IMG/VR virus record: IMGVR_UViG_2698536369_000023
Length of the DNA: 35,821 nt
Direction: 5' to 3' (one strand)
Source: a virus
Taxonomy: Duplodnaviria; Heunggongvirae; Uroviricota; Caudoviricetes
The notes below the pieces were generated by a model. It was not told the DNA's origin, did not search any database, and saw nothing but the letters and a program-made list of their open reading frames with translations. Positions 1 to 18,501 of this stretch are shown piece by piece (position 1 is the stretch's first letter; each line of letters opens with the position of its first letter). Both the position numbers and the translations under genes were made by a program.

Positions 1-1020
1 CTACTTGCTAACCACGAGCGGCAGATCCAGTGTTGGTGTGATTTTTGTTTTACGATCGTAAATCAACACCTGATTTTCTGTTTTATGCCCGCTGAAAATT
101 TGTTTGTCGCGACTGCTGCCTTCGTAATCTGAGATCCCCTTGGCTTTTATGTCGTGAAAATTGCACCCGAACGGAACGCCAACTTTTTGCTCGGCTGAGC
201 GTTTAGCCTGATTCCACCAGTTGTTCAGCGTTTTAGCTATGACTTTCCCGCCTTTGGTTGTATTGATCACATATTCGCATGTACAGGAAGATACATTTCG
301 GGCTAACTGGATCGCTGTACGTAATCGCGGTGACCATTCCTTGATTTGTTTGGTGCCGGTTTTGTTTTGCTCAATGTAGATCCCTTTATCCATAATATCC
401 TGCCATTTCAACTCAAGCACATCACCGAGCCTTGCCGCACAGAGATAGGAAATCTCCATTGCAATGCGTAACTGTGGAATTGCTTCCGCATATATCGCTG
501 CATACTGTTCATCGGTGATGTAAACAGTGCGGGCTTTAAGAGAGAATTTTCTGACTCCTTTACATGGGTTATTCTTCACGTATCCACGCTCATATCCCCA
601 CCCGTATACTCGACTCAGGCTTGCCAGTTCATGATTTGCCTGGGTCTTGCTCTCAAGCCCTCGTTTATCCATGAAAATTCTTACCTGCTCAGTTTTGACA
701 TTATCAGCAAGCACTTTTCCGAATACCATCAGCAACGCCTTCTGATGTTGTCGATAATCTTTTTGGGTTCGGGGGGCCAGTTCTGTAAATGCAGGGGAGT
801 CCATAAACATGTGCCATAATTTAGCTACGGTCATTATGTTGTGGAGTTTTGCTTTTTCCAGTTCATAATTTTGCCAGACTTTAGCTACGCTGGTTTTCCG
901 CACTCTTCCTAGCCCTATAGTTCTTGTACTTCCTTCTGGTTTCCACACGTAACTGTAACCATTCGATCTAACCCGCGGTGGCAGTACATTATCTTTTTTA
1001 TTTTTTCTTGGTCTTCCCAT
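1..1020 (-). CDS. int: Tyrosine-type site-specific integrase
   Basis: 339-aa ORF with stop at 1-3; phage integrase-like sequence throughout; first gene at the prophage end, overlapped by a small upstream xis-like gene. Confidence 0.88.
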   Translation of the reverse strand: MGRPRKNKKDNVLPPRVRSNGYSYVWKPEGSTRTIGLGRVRKTSVAKVWQNYELEKAKLHNIMTVAKLWHMFMDSPAFTELAPRTQKDYRQHQKALLMVFGKVLADNVKTEQVRIFMDKRGLESKTQANHELASLSRVYGWGYERGYVKNNPCKGVRKFSLKARTVYITDEQYAAIYAEAIPQLRIAMEISYLCAARLGDVLELKWQDIMDKGIYIEQNKTGTKQIKEWSPRLRTAIQLARNVSSCTCEYVINTTKGGKVIAKTLNNWWNQAKRSAEQKVGVPFGCNFHDIKAKGISDYEGSSRDKQIFSGHKTENQVLIYDRKTKITPTLDLPLVVSK

Positions 1021-1240
1021 TGTTCAGCGCCTCAAAATCGGGTTCAGCAGAAACCAGTTCAGATGTTTTTGGCATCGTTGTCAGTCCGTGTGGAATATCC
1101 CTGCGTAGAACTATTGGTTCGTTTTTAGGACCGATTACAAATGGGATGCCGTGCAGTCTTAACTGGTGTTGCTGTTTTGTGTATCGCTCGTATTTCGTGA
1201 TCTCTTTAATCTCTGCTGGAGATAGAGTTAATTCGTACAT
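998..1240 (-). CDS. xis: Putative excisionase / small DNA-binding protein
   Basis: 80-aa basic ORF immediately upstream of int and overlapping its start by 23 nt; canonical xis position. Sequence not matched to a specific family from memory. Confidence 0.5.
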   Translation of the reverse strand: MYELTLSPAEIKEITKYERYTKQQHQLRLHGIPFVIGPKNEPIVLRRDIPHGLTTMPKTSELVSAEPDFEALNNGKTKKK

Positions 1241-1307: not shown

Positions 1308-3800
1308 TTAAAAATCAGCCTGACTCGGGATCAGTTTTTGCCAGATAGCTGAAACGTATTTTGCCTGATAACGGGCGTCATCAAGTGCATTATGGCGCTC
1401 ACCTTCGAATGGGGTAGCAGTTCTGGCATCGAAGTCTATGGCTTTCCCCAGCTCAACGATTGTGCGTACATCGCGATCGTTGTAGTAACGCCACGGGCAG
1501 GGGATCCCCTGCCGTTCGTATGAACGGCGCAAAATCGTGTTGTCGAAGTTGGCTCCATTTCCCCAGACCTGAACAAAAAACTCACCGGAGTTTTCGTCGA
1601 TAAATTCCCGCAATTGTAACAGTGCATCATCTAACGGGATTTCATCGGTCATAATGGCAGACTGCGCTTCACGTGATTGCTTCAGCCACCTTTTAATGAC
1701 GTCACGATCAATGACTCCGCCAGCAGTTTCCAGATCGATAGTCTTACTAAATTCCGGTCCCATATCTCCGGTTTGCGGATCGAAAAATATTGCACCTATT
1801 GAGATAATCGGGGCATCAGGATTTTTTCCCATGGTTTCAAGGTCGATCATTAGATGGTCACACGTCCTGCTGGTGGATGTGATTTCTTGATGACCGTTCA
1901 CCTTAATTGAGTGATCTGCCGTCTCGCCAGTTTCATTATCGCTATCGTGATGCTGATTGCCGCCAGTGTTCTCCTTGTGTGGATGTTCAGCGCCTTCCAT
2001 TTCCTCCGGATCATCTTCCTGAACTTCAGGCTGATACTCTTCATCGAATGTTTCCTGGTATGTTGCGTCGCCCATTACCGCGCCACAATCAGGGCAGTTG
2101 CCGCCGCCGGTCTGACCGCAGGCGGTGCAGACTTTTTCCACTTCCTGTTGCGCCACTGATTCAGGCTGTTTCGTTTCTGGCTCGTTTTGTAACGCATTTG
2201 GGCTGTTTTGTAACGCATTTGGGCTGTTTTGTTCCGCTTTCTGGTCGTTCTGTTCCGTTTCTTGCTGGTTCTGGTTCACAGAATCGCGGGTCTGGTTCCC
2301 CTTAACCCATTTCGGATCATTCGGGTCGCTAATCCCTTCAACAAATTCACCACGTGATACTGCAAGCAGTTCATCGGCGTCAGGCTGGCTGATATTGGCT
2401 GCCTGCATAATTTTGTTTACTTCGTCAGCGGTAACTTTTACTGACCCTGGTTGTGCGGTCGTGTCAGATGCACCAGTATTTTGTTGTGAACCTGAGTATG
2501 TACCGTTTTTGCGGGCGAAATATTCTTCTTTCGTGATTTCAGTAGCCCCAGCAGACAGCGCCTTATCCAGACCAGAAAGTTTGTTTGCGCGACCGTATTT
2601 TTCGCCATCCTTGTCGGTGAAGAGGAAGTAGAACGGCCCCTCACGTTCTACAGATGGTTCGACTTCCACTTTGCATTCGGTTTTTTCGTTGTCCGGAATT
2701 GCCGTTTCCACTGCATCAGTTTCTGGTACTGGCGACGAGAGAGTATCAGTTGCGCTCTGATTTGTTCCTTCATCTTCAAACACGCCCTTTGTAGTCAGGT
2801 ATTCAGTAATGTATTTGTTCAGTGCCACAGGGTCTTTGTGAATGTCGATCGGACGTTCACGGACAAGGCCAAAAATAGTCTGGCGGTCGTAGCGAAGGGC
2901 ATCAGGCTGTTTGCGCATTGATGCCGAGATACGCTTCCAGTCTTCGCGGTCGTTGTCGATAACTTCATTTTTTGCCCAGCGATGGATGCTGCCGTCAATG
3001 TTTCCGGCATCCACATCACCAGGCCAGAGAGCGTAGGCCAGTTCGTCATCCAGTGTTTTCCATGTCTGCTTGTATTCGCGATGAATGGCAGCAATGACCG
3101 GGTTGATTTTTCCTGTTGAATTTTCAGTGTGCTGTTGATTGGCTCTGGCGCGGGCGAGATCAACAACAGACGTGTATTTTCCGGCTTCCTTGCGTTCACC
3201 TTCGCGACGTTTTTTCCAGATGCGCATCTCTGCCTGAATTTCGGGCCATTTGGCACCAGGCTTACATTTATGCTTAACCCACCCGATGGCATGCAGCTTA
3301 AGCTCCGGATACATGGCGTTAACTTCTGGCATTTTCATCAACGCTTCAACGATATGTCCGTCGAATGTTGCCATGTCTTCCTGCAACAGTTCCTGCGCGC
3401 TAATCACCATATCAACGGTGATGTTTTCACATGTGTCGAACTTAACCATGACAGCGTTCTGTACTTCAGGGGCCAGCTTGTCAAAAGTGACGTTCATCGG
3501 ATCTGATTCAGTCTCAACCGGGACAAAGGAAGCAGACGCCTCATCCCAGCGGTTTTCCTGCATATATTCAGCATCCCAGGAATCTAGGGCAGGGCGGGGT
3601 ATACCGGGTTTATCCTCGCAGACAAGAAATTTATAAGCGCAGTCCTGAGCAGCCGGATAATGTTCCAGGAATTGCCAGTGAAATTTTGCGCGGGCGCGAC
3701 GTTCATCACCGGCTTCAATGGCAGTGGCTACAGCGACGGCACCTTCTTCCTTTATTGCCTGTTCGTCCGGAATGGCGGCGCAAATAAAGACTTTACTCAT
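1308..3800 (-). CDS. Large phage exonuclease (exodeoxyribonuclease VIII-like N-terminal region, Cys4 zinc ribbon, C-terminal DEDD-type 3'-5' exonuclease-like domain)
   Basis: 830-aa ORF. C-terminal motifs MIDLETMG ... HNALDDARYQA resemble DnaQ-like exonuclease motifs; CTACGQTGGGNCPDCGA is a zinc ribbon. No bet/recT/erf-type annealing protein is adjacent. Confidence 0.7.
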   Translation of the reverse strand: MSKVFICAAIPDEQAIKEEGAVAVATAIEAGDERRARAKFHWQFLEHYPAAQDCAYKFLVCEDKPGIPRPALDSWDAEYMQENRWDEASASFVPVETESDPMNVTFDKLAPEVQNAVMVKFDTCENITVDMVISAQELLQEDMATFDGHIVEALMKMPEVNAMYPELKLHAIGWVKHKCKPGAKWPEIQAEMRIWKKRREGERKEAGKYTSVVDLARARANQQHTENSTGKINPVIAAIHREYKQTWKTLDDELAYALWPGDVDAGNIDGSIHRWAKNEVIDNDREDWKRISASMRKQPDALRYDRQTIFGLVRERPIDIHKDPVALNKYITEYLTTKGVFEDEGTNQSATDTLSSPVPETDAVETAIPDNEKTECKVEVEPSVEREGPFYFLFTDKDGEKYGRANKLSGLDKALSAGATEITKEEYFARKNGTYSGSQQNTGASDTTAQPGSVKVTADEVNKIMQAANISQPDADELLAVSRGEFVEGISDPNDPKWVKGNQTRDSVNQNQQETEQNDQKAEQNSPNALQNSPNALQNEPETKQPESVAQQEVEKVCTACGQTGGGNCPDCGAVMGDATYQETFDEEYQPEVQEDDPEEMEGAEHPHKENTGGNQHHDSDNETGETADHSIKVNGHQEITSTSRTCDHLMIDLETMGKNPDAPIISIGAIFFDPQTGDMGPEFSKTIDLETAGGVIDRDVIKRWLKQSREAQSAIMTDEIPLDDALLQLREFIDENSGEFFVQVWGNGANFDNTILRRSYERQGIPCPWRYYNDRDVRTIVELGKAIDFDARTATPFEGERHNALDDARYQAKYVSAIWQKLIPSQADF
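2184..2232. repeat. In-frame 21-bp tandem repeat (about 2.3 copies) inside the exonuclease gene
   Basis: gttttgtaacgcatttgggct repeated head-to-tail; on the coding strand it gives the NSPNALQ NSPNALQ peptide repeat. Confidence 0.8.
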
Positions 3801-3879
3801 TTTGTTTTACCTCATTACAGATTTAAGGGTGAACAAATCCCTGCCATTGCTGGCATATAAAAATGAAACTGGATATTAA

Positions 3880-4083
3880 TTACGGCGCTGTTTTTAATCC
3901 TGCCGGGATTTCGTTATTGTCCATGTGAATAACTTTATCGACCGGATAACAGTTGCCGGGAATTTTCTGTTCGGTTGCTGCAGTCATACACTCCTGCATT
4001 GTCCTGTGAACACTGACTGCAATATCAACTGGCTCTCCGGAAACAAGAAAAACTGTCAGAACAAGCGCAAATGCAGAATTCAT
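3880..4083 (-). CDS. ydfD: YdfD-like small secreted/membrane protein (Qin-type dicB operon, last gene)
   Basis: Start at the internal Met MNSAFALVLTVFLVSG (signal-peptide-like) preceded by AAGGA N8 ATG; ATGA overlap with the dicB stop. The track ORF 3880-4137 is the N-extended version. Confidence 0.6.
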   Translation of the reverse strand: MNSAFALVLTVFLVSGEPVDIAVSVHRTMQECMTAATEQKIPGNCYPVDKVIHMDNNEIPAGLKTAP

Positions 4084-4268
4084 TGTGCACATCCTTTTGG
4101 CATCAGACGTAAACGAGCCAGCATTGAAACAATGCATATTTTATTTAATAGCTCCCGTTCTTGTTTTCTCTTGTTAATGGCATCTTCAGTAAATACAGGG
4201 TTACTGATAGTGACACCAATTTCAAAACAACCTTCAGACGTATTAACGTTTGGTAATAACGTTTTCAT
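4083..4268 (-). CDS. dicB: Cell division inhibitor DicB
   Basis: 62-aa product MKTLLPNVNTSEGCFEIGVTISNPVFTEDAINKRKQERELLNKICIVSMLARLRLMPKGCAQ matches recalled DicB; GAGGA N7 ATG RBS. The longer track ORF 4080-4373 is an N-terminal over-extension. Confidence 0.8.
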
Positions 4269-4437
4269 TATCGCGTCCTCAACAATGAATTTTGTGATGC
4301 AGTGCCTGGTGCCTCCAGGTGACGTTAACCAGTTAACAATTAACGCCGGATACAGAGAATCCACCCATAACACTGTTTTTGGTTTTAACTGTTCCGCGTG
4401 CGCTTAGCCGCATTCACCGCATCACAAAATTCACTTT

Positions 4438-4495
4438 AAAAAGGGCGGCAGAGCAGTCACGGAGTAAAACTGATACCGCCAAACGTCACCAGAAA
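4438..4495 (-). ncRNA. dicF: DicF small regulatory RNA (ftsZ-targeting antisense sRNA)
   Basis: Reverse complement of 4438-4495 reads TTTCTGGTGACGTTTGGCGGTATCAGTTTTACTCCGTGACTGCTCTGCCGCCCTTTTT, matching recalled DicF; it lies between ydfC and dicB as in Qin. Confidence 0.75.
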
Positions 4496-4835
4496 ATTGA
4501 TAACAGAGGGCGTTGCAGCGGGGTTGTCACTTAAGCGTATGGTCAACCTGACAACTCGGTGTCCTCAACGGGGAAGGAATAACCCCGCCATACTTACCGC
4601 CGCGCCATTTCGCGGAGTGCCACAACCGGAAGCGCACGGTCGACGAAAATTTAACGACAGGCTATCTATGAACCAGCTACCTCGCCGTGCGCTTTCGCGT
4701 TATGGTCTGACTTTTCAGGGAAATATCCTTTCAGTAAACTGTCAGTGCCGGATGCTCACCCGTGTCCGGCGCACGCACTCCACCTCACCCGTGGAGAACT
4801 CCTTAATTACCAACCTTAGCTTCGTTGGTTAGCTA

Positions 4836-5054
4836 TTAACGCGGGTATGTAATCATTCTGGCAATGCTTAATGCCGCTGCTTTTTCCAGATTGGTGATAT
4901 CCTGCTCCAGAGCGGACAGATTTTCAGCCTGCTTAGCCCTGGCTTCATTGGCCCATTTCAGATCCTGCGCTGCATTAATTTTCTGGCGCATCCACTCATA
5001 AAGTTCATCATCGGTATAGTCTGGCGCGATGATGACGGGTTCTCGTTTCTGCAT
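4836..5054 (-). CDS. ydfC: YdfC-like protein (dicB operon)
   Basis: 72-aa ORF with GAGGA N6 ATG RBS; sequence MQKREPVIIAPDYTDDELYEW... matches recalled YdfC. Confidence 0.7.
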   Translation of the reverse strand: MQKREPVIIAPDYTDDELYEWMRQKINAAQDLKWANEARAKQAENLSALEQDITNLEKAAALSIARMITYPR

Positions 5055-5083
5055 ACTGATTCCTCGCGGTGCTGTTTCGCTTA

Positions 5084-5212
5084 TCAGCCGTTAGATTTTG
5101 CCGAACTGGAAAGCGCCTGTTTAAATTCGTTGAAGCTGAGAGCTTCTTCGCCGTCGGCAAGACCTTCGAAGTATTCTTCGTAAGCCTTTTCCATGATTGT
5201 GTCGAAATCCAT
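5084..5212 (-). CDS. ydfB: YdfB-like small acidic protein (dicB operon)
   Basis: 42-aa ORF MDFDTIMEKAYEEYFEGLADGEEALSFNEFKQALSSSAKSNG found by manual translation (below the track's size cut-off); AGGTGA RBS; starts 2 nt after the ydfA stop. Confidence 0.6.
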   Translation of the reverse strand: MDFDTIMEKAYEEYFEGLADGEEALSFNEFKQALSSSAKSNG

Positions 5213-5213
5213 A

Positions 5214-5369
5214 TCACTCACCTGAGTTTCTTTCCAGCCAGCGACGGGCACCATTTTCGGTTTTAAACGTTTTGCTTTTGGTATACGTCATCACGGTGAA
5301 CGTACCGTCCTGGTTGGGGAACACGCCACATACCAGAGATTCGTTGTTGCCAAGATTGAGCATATCCAT
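5214..5369 (-). CDS. ydfA: YdfA-like protein (first gene of dicB operon)
   Basis: 51-aa product MDMLNLGNNESLVCGVFPNQDGTFTVMTYTKSKTFKTENGARRWLERNSGE with GAGG N5 ATG RBS. The track ORF extends to 5450; that alternative start cannot be excluded. Confidence 0.6.
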   Translation of the reverse strand: MDMLNLGNNESLVCGVFPNQDGTFTVMTYTKSKTFKTENGARRWLERNSGE

Positions 5370-5576
5370 GTTGACCTCATTTCCCCTTAACGCCGGGGTA
5401 GCGGAACAAAAACCTGCTGCATAGTTATTAAAGTTGAACCCTGCCGTCATGTTCTTACGCCTCGGGCTGGCTACTTAACCCCTGACCACTGCCGGGTAAC
5501 TCGAAGTATTGCCTGGCGTTCTGTGGGGCGGGGTGGGTTGATGAATGAACAATACCACTACTATTTAATTATGTAA

Positions 5577-5589
5577 ATAGCATTGCTAT
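5577..5589. promoter_or_regulatory. Candidate leftward operator (O_L-like): 13-bp palindrome ATAGCATTGCTAT upstream of the dicB operon
   Basis: Perfect inverted half-sites ATAGCA / TGCTAT around one central base; the same TGCTAT half-site recurs twice in the repressor-cro intergenic region. Confidence 0.45.
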
Positions 5590-5600
5590 TATCGTGGCAA

Positions 5601-5625
5601 GAAAAAAACCACCCGAAGGTGGTTG
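5601..5625 (-). terminator. Rho-independent terminator ending the repressor-antitoxin-toxin transcript
   Basis: Minus-strand hairpin AACCACC-TTCG-GGTGGTT followed by a run of 7 T, 14 nt downstream of the toxin stop. Confidence 0.65.
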
Positions 5626-5638
5626 TTGACAGGAAGGA

Positions 5639-5929
5639 TTAACAGGTTTTGTTTGGATACTGTCTTCGTGAGTGAACTACATTTACGATCTCGATGTTAG
5701 ATGCTGTTACTCGGTAAAGTATTATGTAGTTAGGATGAGTCACTATCTCACGAAGACTTGGAACTCTTTCGCTCGGTGGGTACAGATAAGGGTGTTCAGT
5801 AAGTGACAAAACTGATGTTTCAATGCGTATTTTTAGTCTACGTGCAGCGGGAGGGTTTTCCTTAGCAATATAGGCTACGATCTGACGTAAATCATCACGT
5901 GCAGAAGGTAGCCATAAAATGGGCAGCAT
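5639..5929 (-). CDS. parE: ParE/RelE-superfamily toxin (ParE2-like)
   Basis: 96-aa ORF with ParE-like sequence (plasmid stabilization toxin family); ATGA overlap with the upstream antitoxin. Confidence 0.75.
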   Translation of the reverse strand: MLPILWLPSARDDLRQIVAYIAKENPPAARRLKIRIETSVLSLTEHPYLYPPSERVPSLREIVTHPNYIILYRVTASNIEIVNVVHSRRQYPNKTC

Positions 5930-6120
5930 TACTCACTCCTGTTCGTTGCAGCTAATTGAGCAATAAGGTTTTCCATTTCAGCCATTACTTCGTCATGTGG
6001 AATTGCAGGACGGGGATCTGAGAGGCTTGCTGCCACTTTGGTTCGCAACCATTCGTTATAGCTGTTTTCTTGTTCGACTGTTTCAAATTCAGAAATTATC
6101 GGGGAAAGGGCTGTACTCAT
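5929..6120 (-). CDS. paaA: PaaA2-like antitoxin (63 aa)
   Basis: 63-aa acidic ORF directly upstream of and overlapping the ParE-like toxin; motif SEFETVEQENSYNEWLRTKV resembles recalled PaaA2 of the O157 paaR2-paaA2-parE2 system. Confidence 0.65.
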   Translation of the reverse strand: MSTALSPIISEFETVEQENSYNEWLRTKVAASLSDPRPAIPHDEVMAEMENLIAQLAATNRSE

Positions 6121-6137
6121 GTTTTTACCTCCTCAGA

Positions 6138-6638
6138 TTAGGCGCGACGACCCTTTTGCGCAGCTAGCCATCGCGCAACGATTTCTTCAATTGATTCTTT
6201 TTTCTCCTTCATTTCCTTAAGCATTTTCTCTTTATCTTCTTTGGGGAAAGCCCTGAACGTCTGGAGCAAATCCCGCTCCATGGGGTCTATATTAAACGGA
6301 AGTTCGTTTTCCGATTGTTCCATATCTGCAGATATAGTGACAACATTGTCCTCCCCAGATTCTTGGGGATACATCCTTACAATTTGTAACAACTCGGCCA
6401 TATCTGGTCTGATTGACTCGGGAGGAACTTGCAGCAACCCTGCGAACTTGATAACAGCCTCAAGATTTAAAGGTGTCTGACCATTTAGATAATGGCTTAC
6501 AGCTCCCTGTGTCGAAAATCCCAGAATTTCTGCCGCACGCTCTTGGGTTAACCCTAGTTGATTTTTTTTCGCCGTCCAGATTTCTTTCAGTCTCTGGGCG
6601 GCTTGCAGGTCGATCTCTGACAGGGATTTTCTTTTCAT
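6138..6638 (-). CDS. paaR: HTH (XRE/Cro-C1 type) transcriptional regulator; PaaR2-like and probably the prophage immunity repressor (no LexA-type peptidase domain)
   Basis: 166 aa with N-terminal HTH (LGLTQERAAEILGFSTQGAVSHYLNG); divergent from a Cro-like gene; 17-nt gap to the antitoxin; the ATG has almost no SD spacing (possibly leaderless). Confidence 0.65.
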   Translation of the reverse strand: MKRKSLSEIDLQAAQRLKEIWTAKKNQLGLTQERAAEILGFSTQGAVSHYLNGQTPLNLEAVIKFAGLLQVPPESIRPDMAELLQIVRMYPQESGEDNVVTISADMEQSENELPFNIDPMERDLLQTFRAFPKEDKEKMLKEMKEKKESIEEIVARWLAAQKGRRA

Positions 6639-6674
6639 ACCTTCAATTCTAATAAGATTATTAATCTCTTTGAA

Positions 6675-6687
6675 ATAGTGATGCTAT
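6675..6687. promoter_or_regulatory. Candidate operator O_R site 1 (ATAGTGATGCTAT)
   Basis: 13-bp near-palindrome sharing the TGCTAT half-site with the O_L candidate; ends on the first base of the proposed -35 of the rightward promoter. Confidence 0.4.
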
Positions 6688-6715
6688 TTACTTTTAAAAA
6701 TAACAATGCTATTAA
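6687..6715 (+). promoter_or_regulatory. Putative P_R-like sigma70 promoter for the cro-like operon
   Basis: -35 TTTACT (6687-6692), 17-nt spacer, -10 TATTAA (6710-6715), followed by RBS GAGGTG and ATG at 6746. Confidence 0.35.
6700..6712. promoter_or_regulatory. Candidate operator O_R site 2 (ATAACAATGCTAT)
   Basis: 13-bp near-palindrome 25 bp from site 1; overlaps the proposed -10 element. Confidence 0.4.
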
Positions 6716-6745
6716 TGATCGTGATGACATCACATGAGGTGAACA

Positions 6746-7021
6746 ATGAATCTTGGAGAATATTTGCATCATTCCGGTATAACTCAGAAGCATTTTGCTG
6801 AAATTGTTGGGGTAACCCAAGGGATGGTAAGCCATGTCATTACCGGACGGGCGAAACTTACGGGGAAAAAAATTTTACGCTGGTGCGAAGCAACAGGCTG
6901 GATAGTAACTCCGCACGAGATTGATGGCAGTACTTATCCCAACCCAACCGACGGCTTACCTGTCGAGTATCAGGCTAACACACAACCAGAGGCGGGGGTG
7001 ATTCATGAAAATCAAGCATGA
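6746..7021 (+). CDS. Cro-like HTH regulator (YdaS/Cro family)
   Basis: 91 aa with HTH motif QKHFAEIVGVTQGMVSHVITG; divergent from the repressor; RBS GAGGTG. Confidence 0.7.
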   Translation: MNLGEYLHHSGITQKHFAEIVGVTQGMVSHVITGRAKLTGKKILRWCEATGWIVTPHEIDGSTYPNPTDGLPVEYQANTQPEAGVIHENQA

Positions 7022-7430
7022 ACACATCCGCATGGCAATGAATGCCTGGGCGCATCCGGACGGCGAAAAAGTACCGGCTGCGAAAATTACCAAAGCGTAT
7101 TTCGAGCTGGGAATGACGTTCCCGGAACTGTATGACGACAGCCATCCGGAAGCCCTGGCTCGCAATACTCAGAAAATTTTCCGCTGGGTGGAGAAAGACA
7201 CCCCTGATGCGGTTAAAAAAATTCAGGCGTTGTTACCAGCTATCGAAAAAGCAATGCCACCTCTGCTGGTGGCCCGAATGCGCAGCCACAGTTCTGAATA
7301 TTACCGTGAGATCGTCGAACGGAGGGATCGGCTGGTGAAGGATGTCGATGATTTTGTTGCGTCAGCGGTTGTTTTGTATGACCAGATGAATCGCGGCGGC
7401 CCGGCAGGGAATGCTGTGGTGATGCACTAA
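7005..7430 (+). CDS. YdaT-family protein (CII-like position)
   Basis: 141 aa starting MKIKHEHI..., matching the recalled Rac YdaT N-terminus; overlaps the cro-like gene end by 17 nt. Confidence 0.55.
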   Translation: MKIKHEHIRMAMNAWAHPDGEKVPAAKITKAYFELGMTFPELYDDSHPEALARNTQKIFRWVEKDTPDAVKKIQALLPAIEKAMPPLLVARMRSHSSEYYREIVERRDRLVKDVDDFVASAVVLYDQMNRGGPAGNAVVMH

Positions 7431-7452
7431 AAGCACGGTGTTCGGGGGTTTT

Positions 7453-8415
7453 ATGAGCAGCAAGCTTCATGGTCTTGTCTGGGAAGGGTGCGCCTTTACC
7501 GGCATGATCTTATCCAGGGTGGCGGTTATGGCCCGTCTTGCAGACTACAGCAATGACGAGGGCGTGTCATGGCCTGCCATTGAAACTATCCGGCGTCAGA
7601 TCGGTGCAAGAAGTGAATCCACAGTGAAATCGGCTATTGCAGAACTGGCGAAAGAGGGCTGGCTGACGAAGGAAGAGCGTAAGGTCGGTGGGCGTAATGT
7701 AAGCAATATCTATCGGCTTAATGTGGAAAAACTCGAAGCAGCTGCGGCGGCGGCGCGTGAGTCATATAAACCGAAAAGAAAAATTAGCCCGGCAAAAAAT
7801 GACCCGTTAACAGTTGACCCGTCAAATATTGACCCCTCAACGGTTGACCCGTCAAATTTTGATGGATCAACTGTTGATAAAAAACTGCCGATTAGGGGGG
7901 CGATGATTGACCCCGATCCGTCAGTATTAAAACCTGATCCGTCAGATAAAAGATCTTCTTGTCCGGACGCTTCGCAACCGGACCCGCAGACGGCTGAACA
8001 GGATTTTTTAACCCGACACCCTGACGCGGTTGTGTTCAGTGCGAAAAAACGCCAGTGGGGAAGTCAGGAAGATTTGGTGTGCGCACAGTGGATCTGGGGA
8101 CGAATCGTGAGTCTTTACGAGCAGGCGGCCAGCTATGATGGCGAGATCACTAGACCGAAAGAACCCAACTGGACAGCATGGGCCAATGACGTTCGCACAA
8201 TGCGGATGCTGGATGGCAGAACTCACAGACAAATTTGTGAAATGTTTGGGCGTCTCCAGCGGGATTCGTTCTGGGTAAAAAACATCATGAGTCCGGCAAA
8301 ACTCCGGGAAAAATGGGATGAACTGGTTATCCGCCTGGGGCGTTCGCCTGCGCAGCGTTGCGTGAATCACATTTCTGAACCGGACACTGAAATACCGCCG
8401 GGATTCAGGGGGTGA
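7453..8415 (+). CDS. Phage replication initiation protein (O-like) with origin iterons embedded in the coding sequence
   Basis: ORF with GGGGG RBS before ATG 7453 (the track starts at a GTG at 7438); N-terminal winged-helix-like region; iteron array inside the gene; followed by a DnaC-like loader. Confidence 0.65.
   Translation: MSSKLHGLVWEGCAFTGMILSRVAVMARLADYSNDEGVSWPAIETIRRQIGARSESTVKSAIAELAKEGWLTKEERKVGGRNVSNIYRLNVEKLEAAAAAARESYKPKRKISPAKNDPLTVDPSNIDPSTVDPSNFDGSTVDKKLPIRGAMIDPDPSVLKPDPSDKRSSCPDASQPDPQTAEQDFLTRHPDAVVFSAKKRQWGSQEDLVCAQWIWGRIVSLYEQAASYDGEITRPKEPNWTAWANDVRTMRMLDGRTHRQICEMFGRLQRDSFWVKNIMSPAKLREKWDELVIRLGRSPAQRCVNHISEPDTEIPPGFRG
7799..7885. repeat. Replication origin iterons: six approximately 15-bp repeats (TTGACCCGTCAAAT-like, each internally palindromic TTGAC..GTCAA) followed by an AT-rich segment
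   Basis: Repeat starts near 7799, 7814, 7829, 7844, 7859 and 7874 at 15-bp periodicity, then ttgataaaaaact; analogous to ori-lambda inside gene O. Confidence 0.7.
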
Positions 8416-13566: not shown

Positions 13567-14030
13567 GGTATTAAAGAATGCCCCCGCACACATAAGTTGA
13601 GCGTCTGAGGTGTGGGGATAGGGAGTTAGTTAAATTGTTATACAACAATATCTGATTTTGTATTGAAGCAAGGAAGAGGTTGCCACATATTGAATCATGC
13701 ACGTGTACGTCAAATGTGGGAGGTCATCGTGCTGGTTCTGAAATGTGCGCTGGCTATTGCGGCTGTAATGGCAATTTATTGTCTTGTTATCGTTCTTATG
13801 GATCACCTTTCTGATTGATTTTATATTGGCGAGGTGACGGGAGTTAAGTAGAATTGCTGCGGGTGCTTGAGGCTGTCTGCCTCAGGCATGAACACCAAAA
13901 GGCAGATAGAGAAAAGCCCCAGTTAACATTACGCGTCCTGCAAGACGCTTAACATTAATCTGAGGCCATATCTATGCTCTACACACGTAGGTTAGCCTCT
14001 TACGTGCCGAAAGGCAAGGAGAAGCAGGCT

Positions 14031-14186
14031 ATGAAGCAGCAAAAGGCGATGCTAATCGCCCTGATCGTCATCTGTTTAACCGTCATAGTGACGGCACTGG
14101 TAACGAGGAAAGACCTCTGCGAGGTACGAATCCGAACCGGCCAGACGGAGGTCGTTGTCTTCACAGCTTACGAACCTGAGGAGTAA
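14031..14186 (+). CDS. hok: Hok/Gef-family type I toxin
   Basis: MKQQKAMLIALIVICLTVIVTALVTRKDLCEVRIRTGQTEVVVFTAYEPEE is a Hok/Gef match; the upstream leader has hok-like fold-back elements; a terminator follows. Confidence 0.85.
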   Translation: MKQQKAMLIALIVICLTVIVTALVTRKDLCEVRIRTGQTEVVVFTAYEPEE

Positions 14187-14254
14187 GAGACCCGGCGGGG
14201 GAGAAATCCCTCGCCACCGCTGATGTGTCAGGCATCCTCAACGCACCCGCACTT

Positions 14255-14282
14255 AACCCGCTTCGGCGGGTTTTGTTTTTTC
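14255..14282 (+). terminator. Rho-independent terminator after hok
   Basis: CCCGC-TTCG-GCGGG hairpin followed by TTTTGTTTTT. Confidence 0.7.
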
Positions 14283-14353
14283 TGGTCGTTCTGGTTTACA
14301 ATCCATCCGTCAGCCTGAACAACTGGCACCTGCTGCGCCAGCAGAGAAAACAG

Positions 14354-14632
14354 ATGGCGCACGATACCAAATTTTACAATTCGGATAACTCTGCCGCCCC
14401 TGCCAGCAGGCACGGGCGGCGTTCTCATGCATTCAAATATGACTGGTATCAGCACGATCCCTGCACTGAAGAACAGGCCGAATGGCTGATCCATAACTAC
14501 CGCAGACGTGGGTATGAGTTTAGGAAAGCCCTCAGCCTCGATTATCGTCACTGGATAATCTACGTCAGGCTGCCGTACTCCGAGCGCCCACCGCGTCCGT
14601 CCCGCACATTCCAGCAACGCATCTGGAGGTAA
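14354..14632 (+). CDS. Hypothetical protein (between hok and DUF968)
   Basis: In-frame ATG downstream of the hok terminator; the track ORF from 14225 would read through the terminator and is taken as over-extended. Confidence 0.45.
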   Translation: MAHDTKFYNSDNSAAPASRHGRRSHAFKYDWYQHDPCTEEQAEWLIHNYRRRGYEFRKALSLDYRHWIIYVRLPYSERPPRPSRTFQQRIWR

Positions 14633-15686: not shown

Positions 15687-16058
15687 ATGCGTATAGAGTT
15701 TGTTTTGCCTTATCCGCCGACGGTGAATACTTACTGGCGACGTCGTGGCAGCACATATTTTGTATCAAAAGTCGGTGAGTGTTATCGCCGTGATGTGGCG
15801 CTTATTGTTCGCCAGCAGCGGCTGAAATTAAAACTGTCCGGAAGGCTGGCGATAAAGATTATTGCAGAGCCACCGGATAAGCGCCGCCGCGACCTGGACA
15901 ATATCCTGAAAGCACCACTGGATGCGCTGACGCATGCCGGACTTCTCATAGACGACGAGCAGTTTGATGAAATCAATATTGTGCGCGGTCAGCTCGTTCC
16001 TGGTGGGCGACTGGGCGTGAAGATTTGCGAAATCAGAGGTGATGGTAATGGGGCGTGA
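15687..16058 (+). CDS. rusA: Holliday junction resolvase RusA
   Basis: 123 aa with RusA-like core (DKRRRDLDNILKAPLDALTHAGLLIDDEQ). Confidence 0.85.
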   Translation: MRIEFVLPYPPTVNTYWRRRGSTYFVSKVGECYRRDVALIVRQQRLKLKLSGRLAIKIIAEPPDKRRRDLDNILKAPLDALTHAGLLIDDEQFDEINIVRGQLVPGGRLGVKICEIRGDGNGA

Positions 16059-16398
16059 TATGTATGAGGTTTTAGATCGCTGGGGGGCATGGGCTGCAGC
16101 AGAAAATAGCGGTGTCGATTGGCAACCGATAGCAGCGGGCTTCAAGGGGCTTTTGCCACATGGCAAAAAGTCACGTCTCCAGTGTAATGATGATGAAGGC
16201 ATCATGATAGACGGTTGTGTGGCTCGGTTGCGAAAGTATAAACCAGAGGAATATGAGCTGCTCATAGCTCACTTTGTTATTGGTGTTTCTCTACGCTCAA
16301 TCGCGAAGAAACGCAGGTGCTCAGATGGAACTATAAGAAAGGAGCTGCAAACTGCATTAGGCTTTATTGATGGATGTATATGCTTGATTCTATCATAA
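16048..16398 (+). CDS. Late gene antitermination protein Q (QuuD/phage-82 type)
   Basis: VLDRWGAWAAAENSGVDWQPIAAGFKGLL resembles the recalled QuuD N-terminus; start ambiguous between 16039, 16048 and 16060; overlaps the rusA end. Confidence 0.7.
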   Translation: MGRDMYEVLDRWGAWAAAENSGVDWQPIAAGFKGLLPHGKKSRLQCNDDEGIMIDGCVARLRKYKPEEYELLIAHFVIGVSLRSIAKKRRCSDGTIRKELQTALGFIDGCICLILS

Positions 16399-17047: not shown

Positions 17048-17926
17048 TTAAAGTAGTTTCCTATCTGCCGCCGCTCTGTGGCGTATAACCTTAGTAATAC
17101 TATAGCGTGGTTTAGACAGCGCGCCATTTGTTTCTTTTGTTGTTTCTGTCAGTTCTACAACAAAAAGATCACCCTTACAGAATGCTGCTTGGTTGTGTTC
17201 AACCCGTTCAAGAAAAGCCTCATCTTTCATAGATGCGCTAACTTCTTCGCCATTTGGCAGGATGATATCCCAGCTTTTGCCTTGCTTGAATCGAACATTA
17301 GCAAAATGTACATTAGCTTGGCGTGTCGTTACGTGCGTTTTCTCGACAAAGGTGGATTTTGCAGTTTTAAAACTTACTGCTTCAGCTTGCGTCACCCTGA
17401 CTACCTTATGCTTCTGCTGTGAAACTGAGAACGTGGATGGTTTTTCAGTCTGCAGGGGTTTATAGATTAATTTATCCAGTTCTTTTCGGATGATTGGACT
17501 GGTTATTAATTTTTGAATGTCGTTACTGCATTTAACCTTCTCACCATCCACTTCGATTTCTGCTGTATCTTTTTGTTCATCGACGACAATGGAGCTGATT
17601 TTACGCCCTTTGAGCCATTCGATTATCCCGAGTACGCCACCTGCGGCAACTCCACCACCTGCAACGAGGCCAAGGGCGTTAATAGTTTTTATGCTCCCCA
17701 TCACAGCAACAAGCAAAGTAAATGAACCTTCTTTTGTTGCCTTGATGTTGACTTTCGGCTCTGCTGTTTCGCCATTAATTATTTTTTCGGCGTGTTCAAT
17801 CAGGGCACTAAGAGAGGTTAAGGCTTCGCCTAATGTTTTCGCGTCGATCTGATTATCTGCGTATGCCTCTCCACCGTAGGCAATTTCGATTTCTGTTATT
17901 GGCATGTTTTCGAGTTGCTGCGTCAT
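17048..17926 (-). CDS. Unknown cassette protein A: about 292 aa with an internal glycine-zipper hydrophobic segment and a beta-rich-looking C-terminal half
   Basis: Start placed at ATG 17926 with AAAGGA N8 RBS (the track ORF begins at a GTG at 17959); segment GLVAGGGVAAGGVLGIIEWL; no recognisable family. Confidence 0.6.
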   Translation of the reverse strand: MTQQLENMPITEIEIAYGGEAYADNQIDAKTLGEALTSLSALIEHAEKIINGETAEPKVNIKATKEGSFTLLVAVMGSIKTINALGLVAGGGVAAGGVLGIIEWLKGRKISSIVVDEQKDTAEIEVDGEKVKCSNDIQKLITSPIIRKELDKLIYKPLQTEKPSTFSVSQQKHKVVRVTQAEAVSFKTAKSTFVEKTHVTTRQANVHFANVRFKQGKSWDIILPNGEEVSASMKDEAFLERVEHNQAAFCKGDLFVVELTETTKETNGALSKPRYSITKVIRHRAAADRKLL

Positions 17927-17971
17927 CAAAAGCATCCTTTGCGCAAGAGAAATAGCCACAGGATACAGATA

Positions 17972-18191: not shown

Positions 18192-18267
18192 GGCCCTTTA
18201 GCTCAGTGGTGAGAGCGAGCGACTCATAATCGCCAGGTCGCTGGTTCAAATCCAGCAAGGGCCACCA
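18192..18267 (+). tRNA. tRNA with anticodon CAT (Ile2/Met type)
   Basis: Cloverleaf foldable by eye: acceptor GGCCCTT/AAGGGCC, anticodon loop CTCATAA, T-loop GGTTCAAATCC, 3' CCA encoded. Confidence 0.85.
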
Positions 18268-18268
18268 G

Positions 18269-18345
18269 CCGCCACTAGCTCATCAGGAAAGAGCGTCAAC
18301 CCTTTAAGTTGAGTGTGCGAGGTTCGAGTCCCCGGTGGCGGTCCA
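18269..18345 (+). tRNA. tRNA with atypical anticodon loop CCTTTAA (UUU/Lys by canonical positions, C at position 33)
   Basis: Perfect 7-bp acceptor stem CCGCCAC/GTGGCGG, D-stem GCTC/GAGC, anticodon stem TCAAC/GTTGA, T-loop TTCGAGT, CCA encoded; one A-C mismatch in the T-stem. Confidence 0.6.
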
Positions 18346-18347
18346 GT

Positions 18348-18423
<76 letters not shown>

Positions 18424-18426
18424 TAT

Positions 18427-18501
<75 letters not shown>

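Follow-up and report, generated by a model that had tools for sequence, protein, structure and literature searches.

An intact dicBF operon in the probable leftward early unit of a lambda-like prophage with CP-933P-type immunity

Introduction

The DNA analysed here is a stretch of 35,821 nucleotides of a Caudoviricetes virus (IMG/VR record IMGVR_UViG_2698536369_000023), referred to as the window. An initial annotation placed in it a complete Qin-type dicB operon, coding for the small RNA DicF and the division inhibitor DicB, and described it as intact, as opposed to the K-12 copy in a defective prophage. This raises the question of whether the operon is indeed undamaged, what controls it, and how it relates to the early transcription and the recombination genes of the phage. 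The answer reached below is that the region very probably represents a complete, undamaged ydfABC-dicF-dicB-ydfD cell-division-inhibition operon, carried as cargo of the leftward early unit of a lambda-like prophage.

Results

The operon is colinear with the K-12 Qin operon

A single BLASTN alignment joins the minus strand of the window, 5407..3034, to the ydfA–ydfE segment of the K-12 Qin prophage (locus L001 5471-7845), with 96.2% identity over 2375 columns and one gap. The Qin-type gene order ydfA-ydfB-ydfC-dicF-dicB-ydfD is found on one strand, with every reading frame open and colinear with K-12. Every element named in the initial annotation was recovered on the minus strand, with positions that agree to within a few bases:

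5369..5214, minus strand: ydfA, 51 aa, DUF1391 (Pfam PF07151, E = 1.2e-27), 92.3% nucleotide identity to K-12, 5 amino-acid changes
5212..5084, minus strand: ydfB, 42 aa, 96.1% identity to K-12, 2 changes (PHROG 2061, E = 3.8e-27)
5054..4836, minus strand: ydfC, 72 aa, 99.1% nucleotide identity, protein identical to K-12 (PHROG 1744)
4835..4496, minus strand: untranslated spacer, DicF precursor region, 340 nt, 97.4% identical to K-12, ungapped
4495..4443, minus strand: DicF sRNA, 53 nt, 53/53 identical to K-12, with a terminator hairpin at about 4480-4444 and a U-tract at 4442-4438 just outside
4442..4276, minus strand: DicF-dicB intergenic region, with a predicted 28-bp helix (arms 4442-4415 and 4304-4276) enclosing three small hairpins
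4268..4080, minus strand: dicB, 62 aa, Pfam PF05358 over its full length (1-62/62, E = 1.9e-40), 188/189 nt (99.5%), protein identical to K-12
4083..3880, minus strand: ydfD, 67 aa, DUF1482 (Pfam PF07358), 94.3% identity to K-12, 4-nt overlap with dicB

The alignment reveals no divergence in DicF and no frameshift that disrupts a small open reading frame. The sole indel relative to K-12, a single base near the 3' end of ydfD (K-12 locus position 6980), disrupts no gene. It gives YdfD a C-terminus ending in ...PAGLKTAP and a length of 67 aa, a 4-residue extension of the 63-aa protein in K-12. Similar to the window, K-12 has a 340-nt spacer, equal intergenic processing regions and a downstream gene from the same exonuclease family (ydfE). 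Longer reading frames are mechanically present for ydfA (from 5450), dicB (from 4373) and ydfD (from 4137). For these three genes, it is the proposed short forms that match K-12 colinearly and that are annotated by RefSeq in the closest genome. The alternative in-frame start of ydfA at 5450 would yield 78 aa; the reading frame of this extension is uninterrupted in most related loci, yet it has no bias by codon position (third position), and the 78-aa form is absent from K-12.

The segment 4438-4495 had been identified as DicF, and the 53/53 match at 4495..4443 leaves only bases of the terminator U-tract. The Rfam model RF00039 is matched at 4494..4443 over positions 1-52 of 52 with 76.7 bits, against a gathering score of 48 (E = 2e-15). 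Given the identity to the K-12 RNA, the target-pairing regions (the 3' region for ftsZ and the 5' end for xylR/pykA) and the terminator hairpin with the U-tract that serves Hfq binding are intact. The initial annotation was mistaken in placing the ftsZ pairing at the DicF 5' end, as it is the 3' region that pairs with the ftsZ ribosome-binding site, while the 5' end pairs with xylR (PMC5069750). The error is without consequence here because DicF is identical to its K-12 counterpart throughout. The energy of the DicF-ftsZ duplex did not discriminate between DicF and shuffled versions of it, 48 of 500 shuffles being equally good.

A search of 3700-5750 against other Rfam families at E up to 5 returned, besides DicF, only a sub-threshold match to STnc100 (4445-4236, 34.8 bits versus a gathering score of 47). 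We treat the match as a weak resemblance rather than as membership; the loci published for STnc100 and PasD are close to Q and the lysis genes, unlike the match here.

The control region is of the CP-933P type

The similarity to K-12 Qin ends at window position 5407, 38 nt upstream of ydfA, and BLASTN found nothing homologous further upstream. The region beyond contains the following features:

5541..5370, minus strand: leader of about 170 nt, homologous to K-12 only from 5407 and shared by many other prophages from about 5540
5577..5549, minus strand: predicted sigma-70-like pL promoter from a consensus scan, with -35 TTTACA at 5577-5572, a 17-nt spacer and an extended -10 TGgTATTGT ending at 5549
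5551..5590, no strand assigned: OL, two 15-bp palindromes AATAGCANTGCTATT at 5551-5565 and 5576-5590, 25 bp from start to start
5607..5624, minus strand: intrinsic-terminator-like hairpin and T-run, ending the repressor-paaA2-parE transcript just upstream of OL/pL
5639..6638, minus strand: immunity operon with repressor, PaaA2-type antitoxin and ParE toxin (Pfam HTH_3, PaaA2, ParE_toxin)
5929..5639, minus strand: ParE toxin (Pfam ParE_toxin, E = 6.6e-18)
6120..5929, minus strand: PaaA2-type antitoxin (Pfam PaaA2, E = 1e-21)
6638..6138, minus strand: CI-like HTH repressor, 166 aa, with an N-terminal domain that matches that of lambda CI (E = 9e-10)
6674..6713, no strand assigned: OR, two sites at 6674-6688 and 6699-6713, between the repressor gene and the cro-like gene
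6746-7021, plus strand: cro-like gene (Pfam HTH_3)

The operon thus carries a Qin-type cargo under a control region that is not of the Qin type, since there is no homology upstream of 5407 and the neighbouring repressor gene, which precedes those for PaaA2 and ParE, codes for another HTH protein. The control region is a CP-933P-type module (CI-like repressor–PaaA2–ParE), not DicA/DicC, and promoter, operators and repressor are all unrelated to dicBp and DicA/DicC of K-12.

The consensus scan yielded 5 promoter-like sites, compared with 5.2 expected by chance. The assignment of 5551..5590 as OL/pL is suggested by the operators: the palindrome pair recurs with 25-bp spacing between the divergent repressor and cro-like genes. 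When up to 3 mismatches are allowed, AATAGCANTGCTATT has five matches in the 35.8-kb window, four of which fall in the two 40-bp blocks at OL and OR. The two blocks were also recovered as repeats D1 and I1, with identical 25-bp spacing. Both pL hexamers overlap an operator site, and the layout of site, -35 and -10 at pL mirrors that of the rightward promoter, as read by eye. The proposal that the operon lies immediately under O_L is therefore borne out, the promoter overlapping two palindromes that are repeated at OR. Position and repetition of the sites, rather than site homology, suggest that the repressor binds at OL, and transcription from pL would start near 5541.

The arrangement resembles that of CP-933P / Sp12 of E. 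coli O157:H7 (paaR2-paaA2-parE2, ydaS-ydaT, PL933P). In both, the repressor, a PaaA2-type antitoxin, a ParE toxin and a terminator are followed by a PL with OR-repeated operators, and division-inhibitor genes are located downstream of the repressor operon. Both also have divergent cro-like and YdaT/CII-like genes; in the window, the gene with the YdaT_toxin and PHROG CII-like assignments is divergent from the repressor operon, as is the cro-like gene. A promoter-like site at 6674-6646 ends 7 nt before the repressor ATG, which suggests a leaderless repressor mRNA, as shown for paaR2 (PMC8630535). In CP-933P, PaaR2 and YdaS were shown to repress the PL located after the toxin-antitoxin genes, and dicB/kil was noted downstream (PMC8630535). 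However, the published operators of CP-933P are 18-bp palindromes with the consensus GTTTAGTAA (PMC8630535), while those in the window are AATAGCANTGCTATT, with two sites per operator. The architecture is therefore shared with CP-933P, but the immunity specificity should be different.

The repressor contains no LexA-type cleavage/peptidase domain according to Pfam. We considered a Rem-like antirepressor next to hok/sok, as in Qin, but ORF 14225-14632 shows no similarity to K-12 Rem and has no Pfam match. No N-like antiterminator gene was found between pL and ydfA in the list of reading frames or with Pfam, ydfA being the first open reading frame after pL. The pL leader (5542-5360) was also considered as a put- or nut-like antitermination RNA, and the idea was rejected, as the fold is not more stable than shuffled sequences (z = +1.5) and the consensus fold across 30 distinct sequences is weak.

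Two predicted long helices flank DicF

In K-12, RNase III cleaves 137 nt before the start of DicF and so releases a 190-nt precursor, and RNase E cuts at the DicF 5' end (PMC10448788). This agrees with the suggestion that the spacer at 4496-4835 holds the processed DicF precursor. Minimum-free-energy folds and pair counts over 106 distinct sequences place a candidate processing site in the spacer:

4620..4705, minus strand: predicted long helix, candidate upstream RNase III site (arms 4705-4682 and 4643-4620)

The published 5' end of the 190-nt precursor (PMC10448788) maps to window position 4632, within the 3' arm of this helix. A 72-nt DicF species arises from an RNase III cut 19 nt beyond the 53-nt end (PMC5069750; PMC9438474), and its 3' end maps to about 4424, within the 5' arm of the DicF-dicB intergenic helix. 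Folds and pair counts extend the 3' arm of the latter into the Shine-Dalgarno sequence of dicB, GAGGA (4280-4276). The differences between the window and K-12 inside the two helices (4687 and 4419) keep the pairing. There is no covariation support for either long helix, as their columns hardly vary and such changes as occur affect one side only and preserve wobble pairs.

The 3' ~220 nt of the spacer, DicF and the DicF-dicB intergenic region travel together among prophages and are more conserved than dicB and ydfD; in other prophages, no part of the spacer except these 3' ~220 nt is found with DicF every time. A hidden small reading frame in the spacer or in the intergenic region was considered and rejected: across 94 sequences, variation shows three-base periodicity in dicB and ydfD, but not in the spacer (0.065/0.066/0.060) or the intergenic region (0.016/0.018/0.016). 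The conservation of the flanks and the recombination breakpoints fit a cassette for processing whose limits are set by two RNase III helices.

The genes downstream and the extent of the transcript

Three genes follow the operon on the same strand:

3800..1308, minus strand: exonuclease, 830 aa, the intact counterpart of the K-12 ydfE pseudogene (Pfam Rv2179c-like domain at residues 649-820, E = 3e-63; PHROG 2082 over its full length)
1240..998, minus strand: excisionase (xis), 80 aa (PHROG 1266, E = 1.9e-23)
1020..1, minus strand: tyrosine integrase (int), 339 aa (Pfam PF00589)

The initial annotation had put the operon directly upstream of exo-xis-int, which holds for gene order and strand. 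The name "exo" is misleading, as the protein is neither lambda Exo nor RecE, its C-terminal domain being that of an Rv2179c-like DEDDh 3'-5' exonuclease. As far as the IS2 junction, the gene shares 95.3% identity with K-12 ydfE. While exonuclease, xis and int are intact in the window, they are IS2-cut or pseudogenes in K-12.

In K-12, no transcript reaching ydfE (ydfABC-dicFB-ydfDE) was detected (PMC10448788), and in the window ydfD is separated from the exonuclease gene by a weak terminator-like hairpin (3855-3842), so exo-xis-int may be outside the operon transcript. The two could then be separate transcription units related by adjacency only, with pL transcripts stopping at the DicF terminator or after ydfD, and with the recombination genes expressed from promoters of their own, activated for example by the CII-like YdaT. 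The strong intrinsic terminator at the DicF 3' end and the lack of an N-like gene between pL and ydfA point in the same direction. Yet we regard full separation as somewhat unlikely. The YdaT site TTGATTN6AATCAA, which was tried and rejected as a marker of pI- or pRE-like promoters, has one match with 1 mismatch in the window (6998-7015), at chance level and away from exo, xis and int. No minus-strand promoter-like site was found in 3700-4300 by the consensus scan, and read-through past the DicF terminator is documented and needed for both the 72-nt species and dicB expression (PMC5069750).

Relatives of the operon and the state of the prophage

Of 5426 complete E. coli genomes, 4769 carry the operon. 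The order CI repressor, ydfA, ydfB, ydfC, DicF, dicB, ydfD, exonuclease, xis and int is also seen in Escherichia phage Tritos (OV696610), mEp460_ev081, vB_EcoS-689R5, vB_EcoM-606R7 and PhiR42_1. Tritos and its relatives were deposited as complete phage genomes and are 96-97% identical over 85-91% of a 1.9-kb query; DicF is annotated by name in the Tritos genome, and the literature names mEp460_ev081 as a functional temperate phage with dicB and dicF (PMC10448788). Their immunity modules differ from that of the window; in Tritos, a 139-aa CI directly precedes ydfA and there is no toxin-antitoxin pair.

The broad distribution could mean that the operon is mainly a cassette of benefit to the lysogen, with leaky or stress-induced expression supplying DicF for metabolic and virulence regulation and DicB for exclusion of ManYZ-dependent phages, so that it would be selection acting on the host and not on the phage that maintains it intact. 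We consider this possible, although we would not call it probable. The genomes often hold several copies, many of them in defective prophages (PMC5069750), DicF accumulates in stationary phase in K-12, where dicBp is spontaneously on in about 1% of cells (PMC10448788), and DicB protects against phage infection (PMC6832061). However, a lytic early operon would be expected to sit where this one does, just below OL/pL and ahead of exo-xis-int. Moreover, the operon is very toxic when fully expressed (PMC5069750), and it has been kept in the complete genomes of Tritos, vB_EcoS-689R5, vB_EcoM-606R7 and PhiR42_1, and in mEp460_ev081, described as functional. That the element is a decaying remnant as in K-12, with an operon that is intact in sequence but no longer part of a working phage, seems quite unlikely. 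The window ends within the tail-tip genes, the rest of the prophage lying beyond view, and in the closest chromosomal relative (H1) the integrase is truncated, with an IS66-family element next to it downstream. Nevertheless, the int, xis, exonuclease, repressor, cro-like, CII-like, replication, Q, lysis, terminase, portal, capsid and tail genes are all long uninterrupted reading frames in the window, and 57% of its first 25 kb matches phage Evi at 94% identity.

Benefit to the lysogen and use in the lytic cycle are mutually compatible as readings of the operon.

Discussion

The preferred reading, an undamaged operon in the leftward early unit, suggests how the locus may work. In the lysogen, the CI-like repressor would keep the operon off by binding the paired palindromes over both pL hexamers, as suggested by the sequence and by the experiments on the CP-933P homologue. 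Upon loss of the repressor, transcription would proceed from about 5541 through ydfA, ydfB, ydfC and the untranslated spacer. RNase III would cut the long helix at about 4632, giving the 190-nt precursor, which RNase E would trim to the DicF 5' end at 4495. The 3' end would have two possible origins: intrinsic termination at the hairpin and U-tract, which gives 53 nt, and RNase III cleavage of the second helix on read-through transcripts, which gives 72 nt. The processing steps have been shown for K-12 and are presumed to apply here on account of the near-identical sequence.

DicF together with Hfq would block ftsZ translation via its 3' region, and would block xylR, pykA and manX via other contacts. 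Read-through transcripts would yield DicB, which with MinC would block Z-ring formation. DicB would also inhibit ManYZ and thereby exclude phages injecting through ManYZ, and the statement that it blocks DNA entry by this route has support in the literature (PMC6832061). The same transcripts would give YdfD, a lysis protein reported to inhibit IspG (PMC8835842). The DicF terminator probably serves as an attenuator limiting the expression of dicB, ydfD and any downstream exo-xis-int.

In this way, the operon would play the role that kil has in the pL operon of lambda, namely to stop host division during lytic growth, while leaky expression in lysogens would give some superinfection exclusion. 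Each is a leftward early operon under repressor control, in which a division inhibitor directed at FtsZ lies upstream of the genes for recombination and integration. The analogy is functional, as there is no sequence homology, and neither an N gene nor a nut site was found in the window. Division would be blocked here by an sRNA and by DicB/MinC, but in lambda by Kil, and an intrinsic terminator, the DicF 3' end, lies mid-operon here.

A more speculative and, taken as a whole, unlikely extension is that DicF moves between prophages not alone but as a ~440-nt cassette (4715-4276) bounded by the two long RNase III helices. The downstream helix would pair the terminator U-tract and the next 23 nt with sequence reaching into the dicB Shine-Dalgarno. 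This would mask DicB translation on read-through transcripts up to the point of RNase III cleavage, and the activation of dicB would thereby be coupled to the release of the 72-nt DicF. The DicF terminator would then meter dicB, ydfD, exo, xis and int in phages that lack N. One modest new point is that the untranslated flanks of DicF are more conserved than the adjacent genes and that recombination breakpoints respect them; it also points to a link, open to testing, between dicB translation and cleavage by RNase III.

The intact dicBF operon under a prophage pL is a correct but ordinary observation, as the arrangement is already on record in thousands of E. coli genomes and several sequenced phages, and the contrast with the defective K-12 prophage, although true, was known. 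The native pL setting is likewise documented already, by sequenced phages such as Tritos and mEp460_ev081 and by the literature on CP-933P and Qin. The locus has little significance beyond its correct annotation; in it, the dicBF operon can be seen where it natively belongs, as pL operon in a lambdoid prophage that appears complete and has CP-933P-type immunity. As such, it could serve as a natural system for asking how DicF, DicB and YdfD benefit the phage rather than the host.

The dicBF operon is intact and collinear with that of Qin

The initial annotation had proposed a complete Qin-type dicB operon, and this is confirmed by alignment, Rfam and Pfam, with all important coordinates right. 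The locus in Qin, the cryptic prophage of E. coli K-12 (5471-7845), aligns to window positions 5407-3034 as a single block of 2375 columns with 96.2% identity and one gap.

5369..5214, minus strand, ydfA, 92.3% identity to K-12
5212..5084, minus strand, ydfB, 96.1% identity
5054..4836, minus strand, ydfC, 99.1% identity
4835..4496, minus strand, spacer of exactly 340 nt, 97.4% identity, ungapped
4495..4443, minus strand, DicF, 53/53 identical
4442..4269, minus strand, DicF-dicB intergenic region, 98.9% identity
4268..4080, minus strand, dicB, 99.5% identity
4083..3880, minus strand, ydfD, 94.3% identity

The proteins YdfC and DicB are unchanged relative to K-12, and Pfam matches were obtained for YdfA (DUF1391), DicB (full length) and YdfD (DUF1482). 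Segment 4438-4495 had been read as DicF; consistently, Rfam RF00039 is matched over the whole model at 4494..4443 on the minus strand (76.7 bits versus a gathering score of 48, E = 2e-15). Neither divergence of DicF nor disruption of the small ORFs by frameshifts was seen, and the sole indel is one base near the end of ydfD, which gives a product of 67 aa here versus 63 aa in K-12. The ftsZ-pairing region, previously assigned to the 5' end of DicF, is instead its 3' region (PMC5069750).

An in-frame ATG upstream of ydfA (5370-5450, minus strand) would add 27 residues to give a YdfA of 78 aa, the form annotated in the record of phage Tritos. Most related loci keep the extension frame open, but it varies without codon bias, and the sequence is absent from K-12.

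The control region resembles that of CP-933P

The homology to K-12 stops at 5407, 38 nt upstream of the ydfA start, and no dicA or dicC is present upstream of the operon in the window. Judged from its sequence, the control region is of the type of the E. coli O157:H7 prophage CP-933P, with an embedded PaaA2-ParE module.

6638..6138, minus strand, HTH protein (repressor), 166 aa, Pfam
6120..5929, minus strand, PaaA2-type antitoxin, 63 aa, Pfam
5929..5639, minus strand, ParE toxin, 96 aa, Pfam
5624-5607, minus strand, clean terminator-like hairpin with a T-run
6746-7021, divergent from the repressor gene, cro-like HTH gene
7005-7430, divergent from the repressor gene, YdaT/CII-like gene

The N-terminal domain of the repressor shows homology to the DNA-binding domain of lambda CI (E = 9e-10), and no peptidase (cleavage) domain was found in the protein with Pfam. 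A promoter-like site ends 7 nt ahead of its ATG, which suggests that the mRNA is leaderless, like that of paaR2, for which this was established by experiment (PMC8630535).

Right after the terminator-like hairpin there is a promoter-like site, pL, with a -35 hexamer TTTACA at 5577-5572 and an extended -10 that ends at 5549. Both hexamers overlap 15-bp palindromes, located at 5576-5590 (perfect AATAGCATTGCTATT) and 5551-5565. At three mismatches or fewer, this palindrome has five matches in the window, four of which form two pairs with a 25-bp spacing in each, and the second pair (6674-6688 and 6699-6713) is placed in the repressor/cro intergenic region. The pairs at 5551-5590 and 6674-6713 correspond to the OL/OR arrangement of lambdoid immunity regions, in agreement with the earlier placement of the operon under a candidate O_L. 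In CP-933P, PaaR2 and YdaS repress the PL promoter beyond paaA2-parE2, and division-inhibitor genes have been noted downstream (PMC8630535). The OL/OR and repressor-PaaA2-ParE architecture reproduces this experimentally shown layout. However, the immunity specificity would differ within the same architecture, because the operator sequence departs from the CP-933P consensus.

The PaaA2-ParE pair (5639-6120, minus strand) lies between the repressor gene and OL/pL, where lambda has rexAB. The gene order is that of the three-gene paaR2-paaA2-parE2 arrangement of CP-933P.

Conserved flanks and predicted helices around DicF

Public collections were scanned with a DicF core pattern, which together with the loci of K-12 and H1, the closest chromosomal relative, gave 130 DicF-bearing sequences. 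Their comparison with the window reveals a mosaic with recurrent breakpoints at ~5540, 5407, 4815-4715, 4284 and 3809-3796, and in many prophages ydfB and ydfC are missing or have other genes in their place. Roughly 220 nt upstream of DicF are kept in all but one locus, a DicF-only match in Salmonella, and ~160 nt downstream are kept in most. Among 94 distinct sequences, conservation is higher in the untranslated flanks than in the genes, although the selection of loci by exact identity to 22 nt of DicF raises the apparent conservation of DicF itself and, by linkage, to some extent that of its surroundings.

Mean major-allele frequency (94 sequences)
4555-4496, 0.997
4355-4269, 0.988
dicB, 0.902
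ydfD, 0.875

No codon periodicity was detected in the DicF flanks of these 94 sequences. The 340-nt spacer had been taken as the precursor region; its length is correct, but the conserved processing region comprises only the 3' two-thirds.

Near-identical E. coli-type DicF loci in metagenome-assembled genomes labelled Veillonella parvula (L007) and Collinsella sp. (L009) most likely represent binning contamination by Enterobacteriaceae prophage DNA.

The fold of the 567-nt untranslated stretch is more stable than that of shuffled sequences (z = -4.0). Two long helices are prominent in the prediction: in helix 1, 4705-4682 pairs with 4643-4620, and in helix 2, 4442-4415 pairs with 4304-4276 (28 pairs, including G-U). 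The published 5' end of the 190-nt DicF precursor, an RNase III cut between transcript positions 813 and 814 (PMC10448788), maps onto the 3' arm of helix 1, at 4632. The 72-nt DicF, cut by RNase III 19 nt past the 53-nt form (PMC5069750; PMC9438474), ends at ~4424, inside the 5' arm of helix 2, while the 3' arm of this helix reaches the dicB Shine-Dalgarno GAGGA (4280-4276), paired weakly with the terminator U-tract. On its upstream side the conserved cassette is bounded at ~4715, ~10 nt 5' of helix 1, and the ~4284 breakpoint is located in the 3' arm of helix 2. The window differs from K-12 at two helix positions (4687 and 4419), both one-sided and pairing-preserving, and variation among the relatives is also one-sided with pairing kept, such as C-G to U-G at 4702/4623, 4419/4300 and 4418/4301. 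Since compensatory double changes are absent from both helices among the relatives, the comparison neither proves nor contradicts them. It is a rather doubtful proposition that RNase III cleavage and dicB translation are coupled through helix 2 and that the DicF terminator acts as the attenuator of a pL operon that lacks N, unlike that of lambda.

A sub-threshold match to STnc100 (Rfam; 34.8 bits versus a gathering score of 47, E = 2e-5 to 8e-6) at 4236-4445 on the minus strand extends across the region between DicF and dicB and 32 nt into dicB; GGUGAAU and the hairpin CACCUGGAGGCACCAGGCAC are among the stretches in common. The resemblance may reflect a distant relative or chance, since the published STnc100 and PasD loci are near Q and lysis genes.

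Downstream genes and the rest of the window

The operon had been described as followed by exo-xis-int. An exonuclease, an excisionase and an integrase are indeed present, but the "exo" is a DEDDh-domain exonuclease.

3800..1308, minus strand, exonuclease gene
1240..998, minus strand, excisionase
1020..1, minus strand, tyrosine integrase

The exonuclease (830 aa) carries an Rv2179c-like DEDDh 3'-5' exonuclease domain at its C-terminus (Pfam, E = 3e-63), and PHROG 2082 is matched along the whole protein. Over its first 765 nt, as far as the IS2 junction, the gene shares 95.3% identity with the K-12 ydfE pseudogene. These matches identify it as the intact form of ydfE. An identity with lambda Exo is ruled out by the DEDDh domain and the ydfE match. 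A weak terminator-like hairpin (3855-3842) lies ahead of the gene, and in K-12 no transcript joining the dicBF operon to the exo-xis-int side was seen (PMC10448788), so exo-xis-int may not share a transcript with the operon.

Elsewhere in the window, long open frames belong to replication functions, hok/sok, DUF968 and Q, and to lysis, terminase, portal, capsid and tail proteins. The type I toxin-antitoxin locus hok/sok (13861-14186, plus strand; sok RF01794 at 117.8 bits) contains a Hok/Gef-family ORF (13974-14186, plus strand) with an upstream mok-like extension and precedes a DUF968 (YdfU-like) gene, an order also present in Qin. The ORF that separates them (14225-14632) does not resemble Rem, the antirepressor of Qin, and the search for a Rem homologue was negative. 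A compact cluster of four tRNA genes (Met-CAT, Lys-TTT, Thr-TGT and Gly-TCC; 18192-18501, plus strand) separates the Q antiterminator region from the lysis genes. A 303-aa ORF with a GTG start and no Pfam family (17048-17959, minus strand), opposite to the late genes, sits between Q (16039-16398) and the tRNA cluster and may be a moron gene or spurious.

Distribution and proposed function

The 1.9-kb region is matched in 4769 of 5426 complete E. coli genomes, 2032 of which hold at least 80% of it (best match 97.4% identity over 100%). Sixty records in the phage collection match, and at least 80% is contained in four: Tritos, vB_EcoS-689R5, vB_EcoM-606R7 and PhiR42_1. Phage Evi resembles the first 25 kb of the window over 57% at 94% identity. 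A 2016 paper reported having detected neither DicF nor DicB among about 2,000 phage genomes (PMC5069750), and by 2023 the same laboratory had pointed out that the functional temperate phage mEp460_ev081 carries dicB and dicF (PMC10448788). In Tritos, the identical order is annotated: CI, three small proteins, "DicF antisense sRNA", dicB, ydfD, exonuclease, excisionase and integrase. The intact operon in this prophage setting is thus correct but already known, given this annotation, the E. coli matches and the mEp460_ev081 report.

Overall, the initial interpretation of the operon is supported. In the account with the most support, the CI-like repressor would keep pL off via OL, and upon its loss transcription would start near 5541. 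Cleavage by RNase III and then RNase E would release DicF, whose hairpin and U-tract would terminate a share of the transcripts; read-through transcripts would receive a second RNase III cut and express dicB and ydfD. With Hfq, DicF represses ftsZ via its 3' region, and also xylR, pykA and manX (PMC5069750; PMC9438474). DicB acts with MinC to block division and inhibits ManYZ, so that some phages are excluded (PMC6832061; PMC10448788), and YdfD causes lysis through IspG inhibition (PMC8835842). From the sequence identity, these K-12 activities would carry over to this phage, and the dicBF operon would be the functional counterpart of kil in the lambda pL operon.
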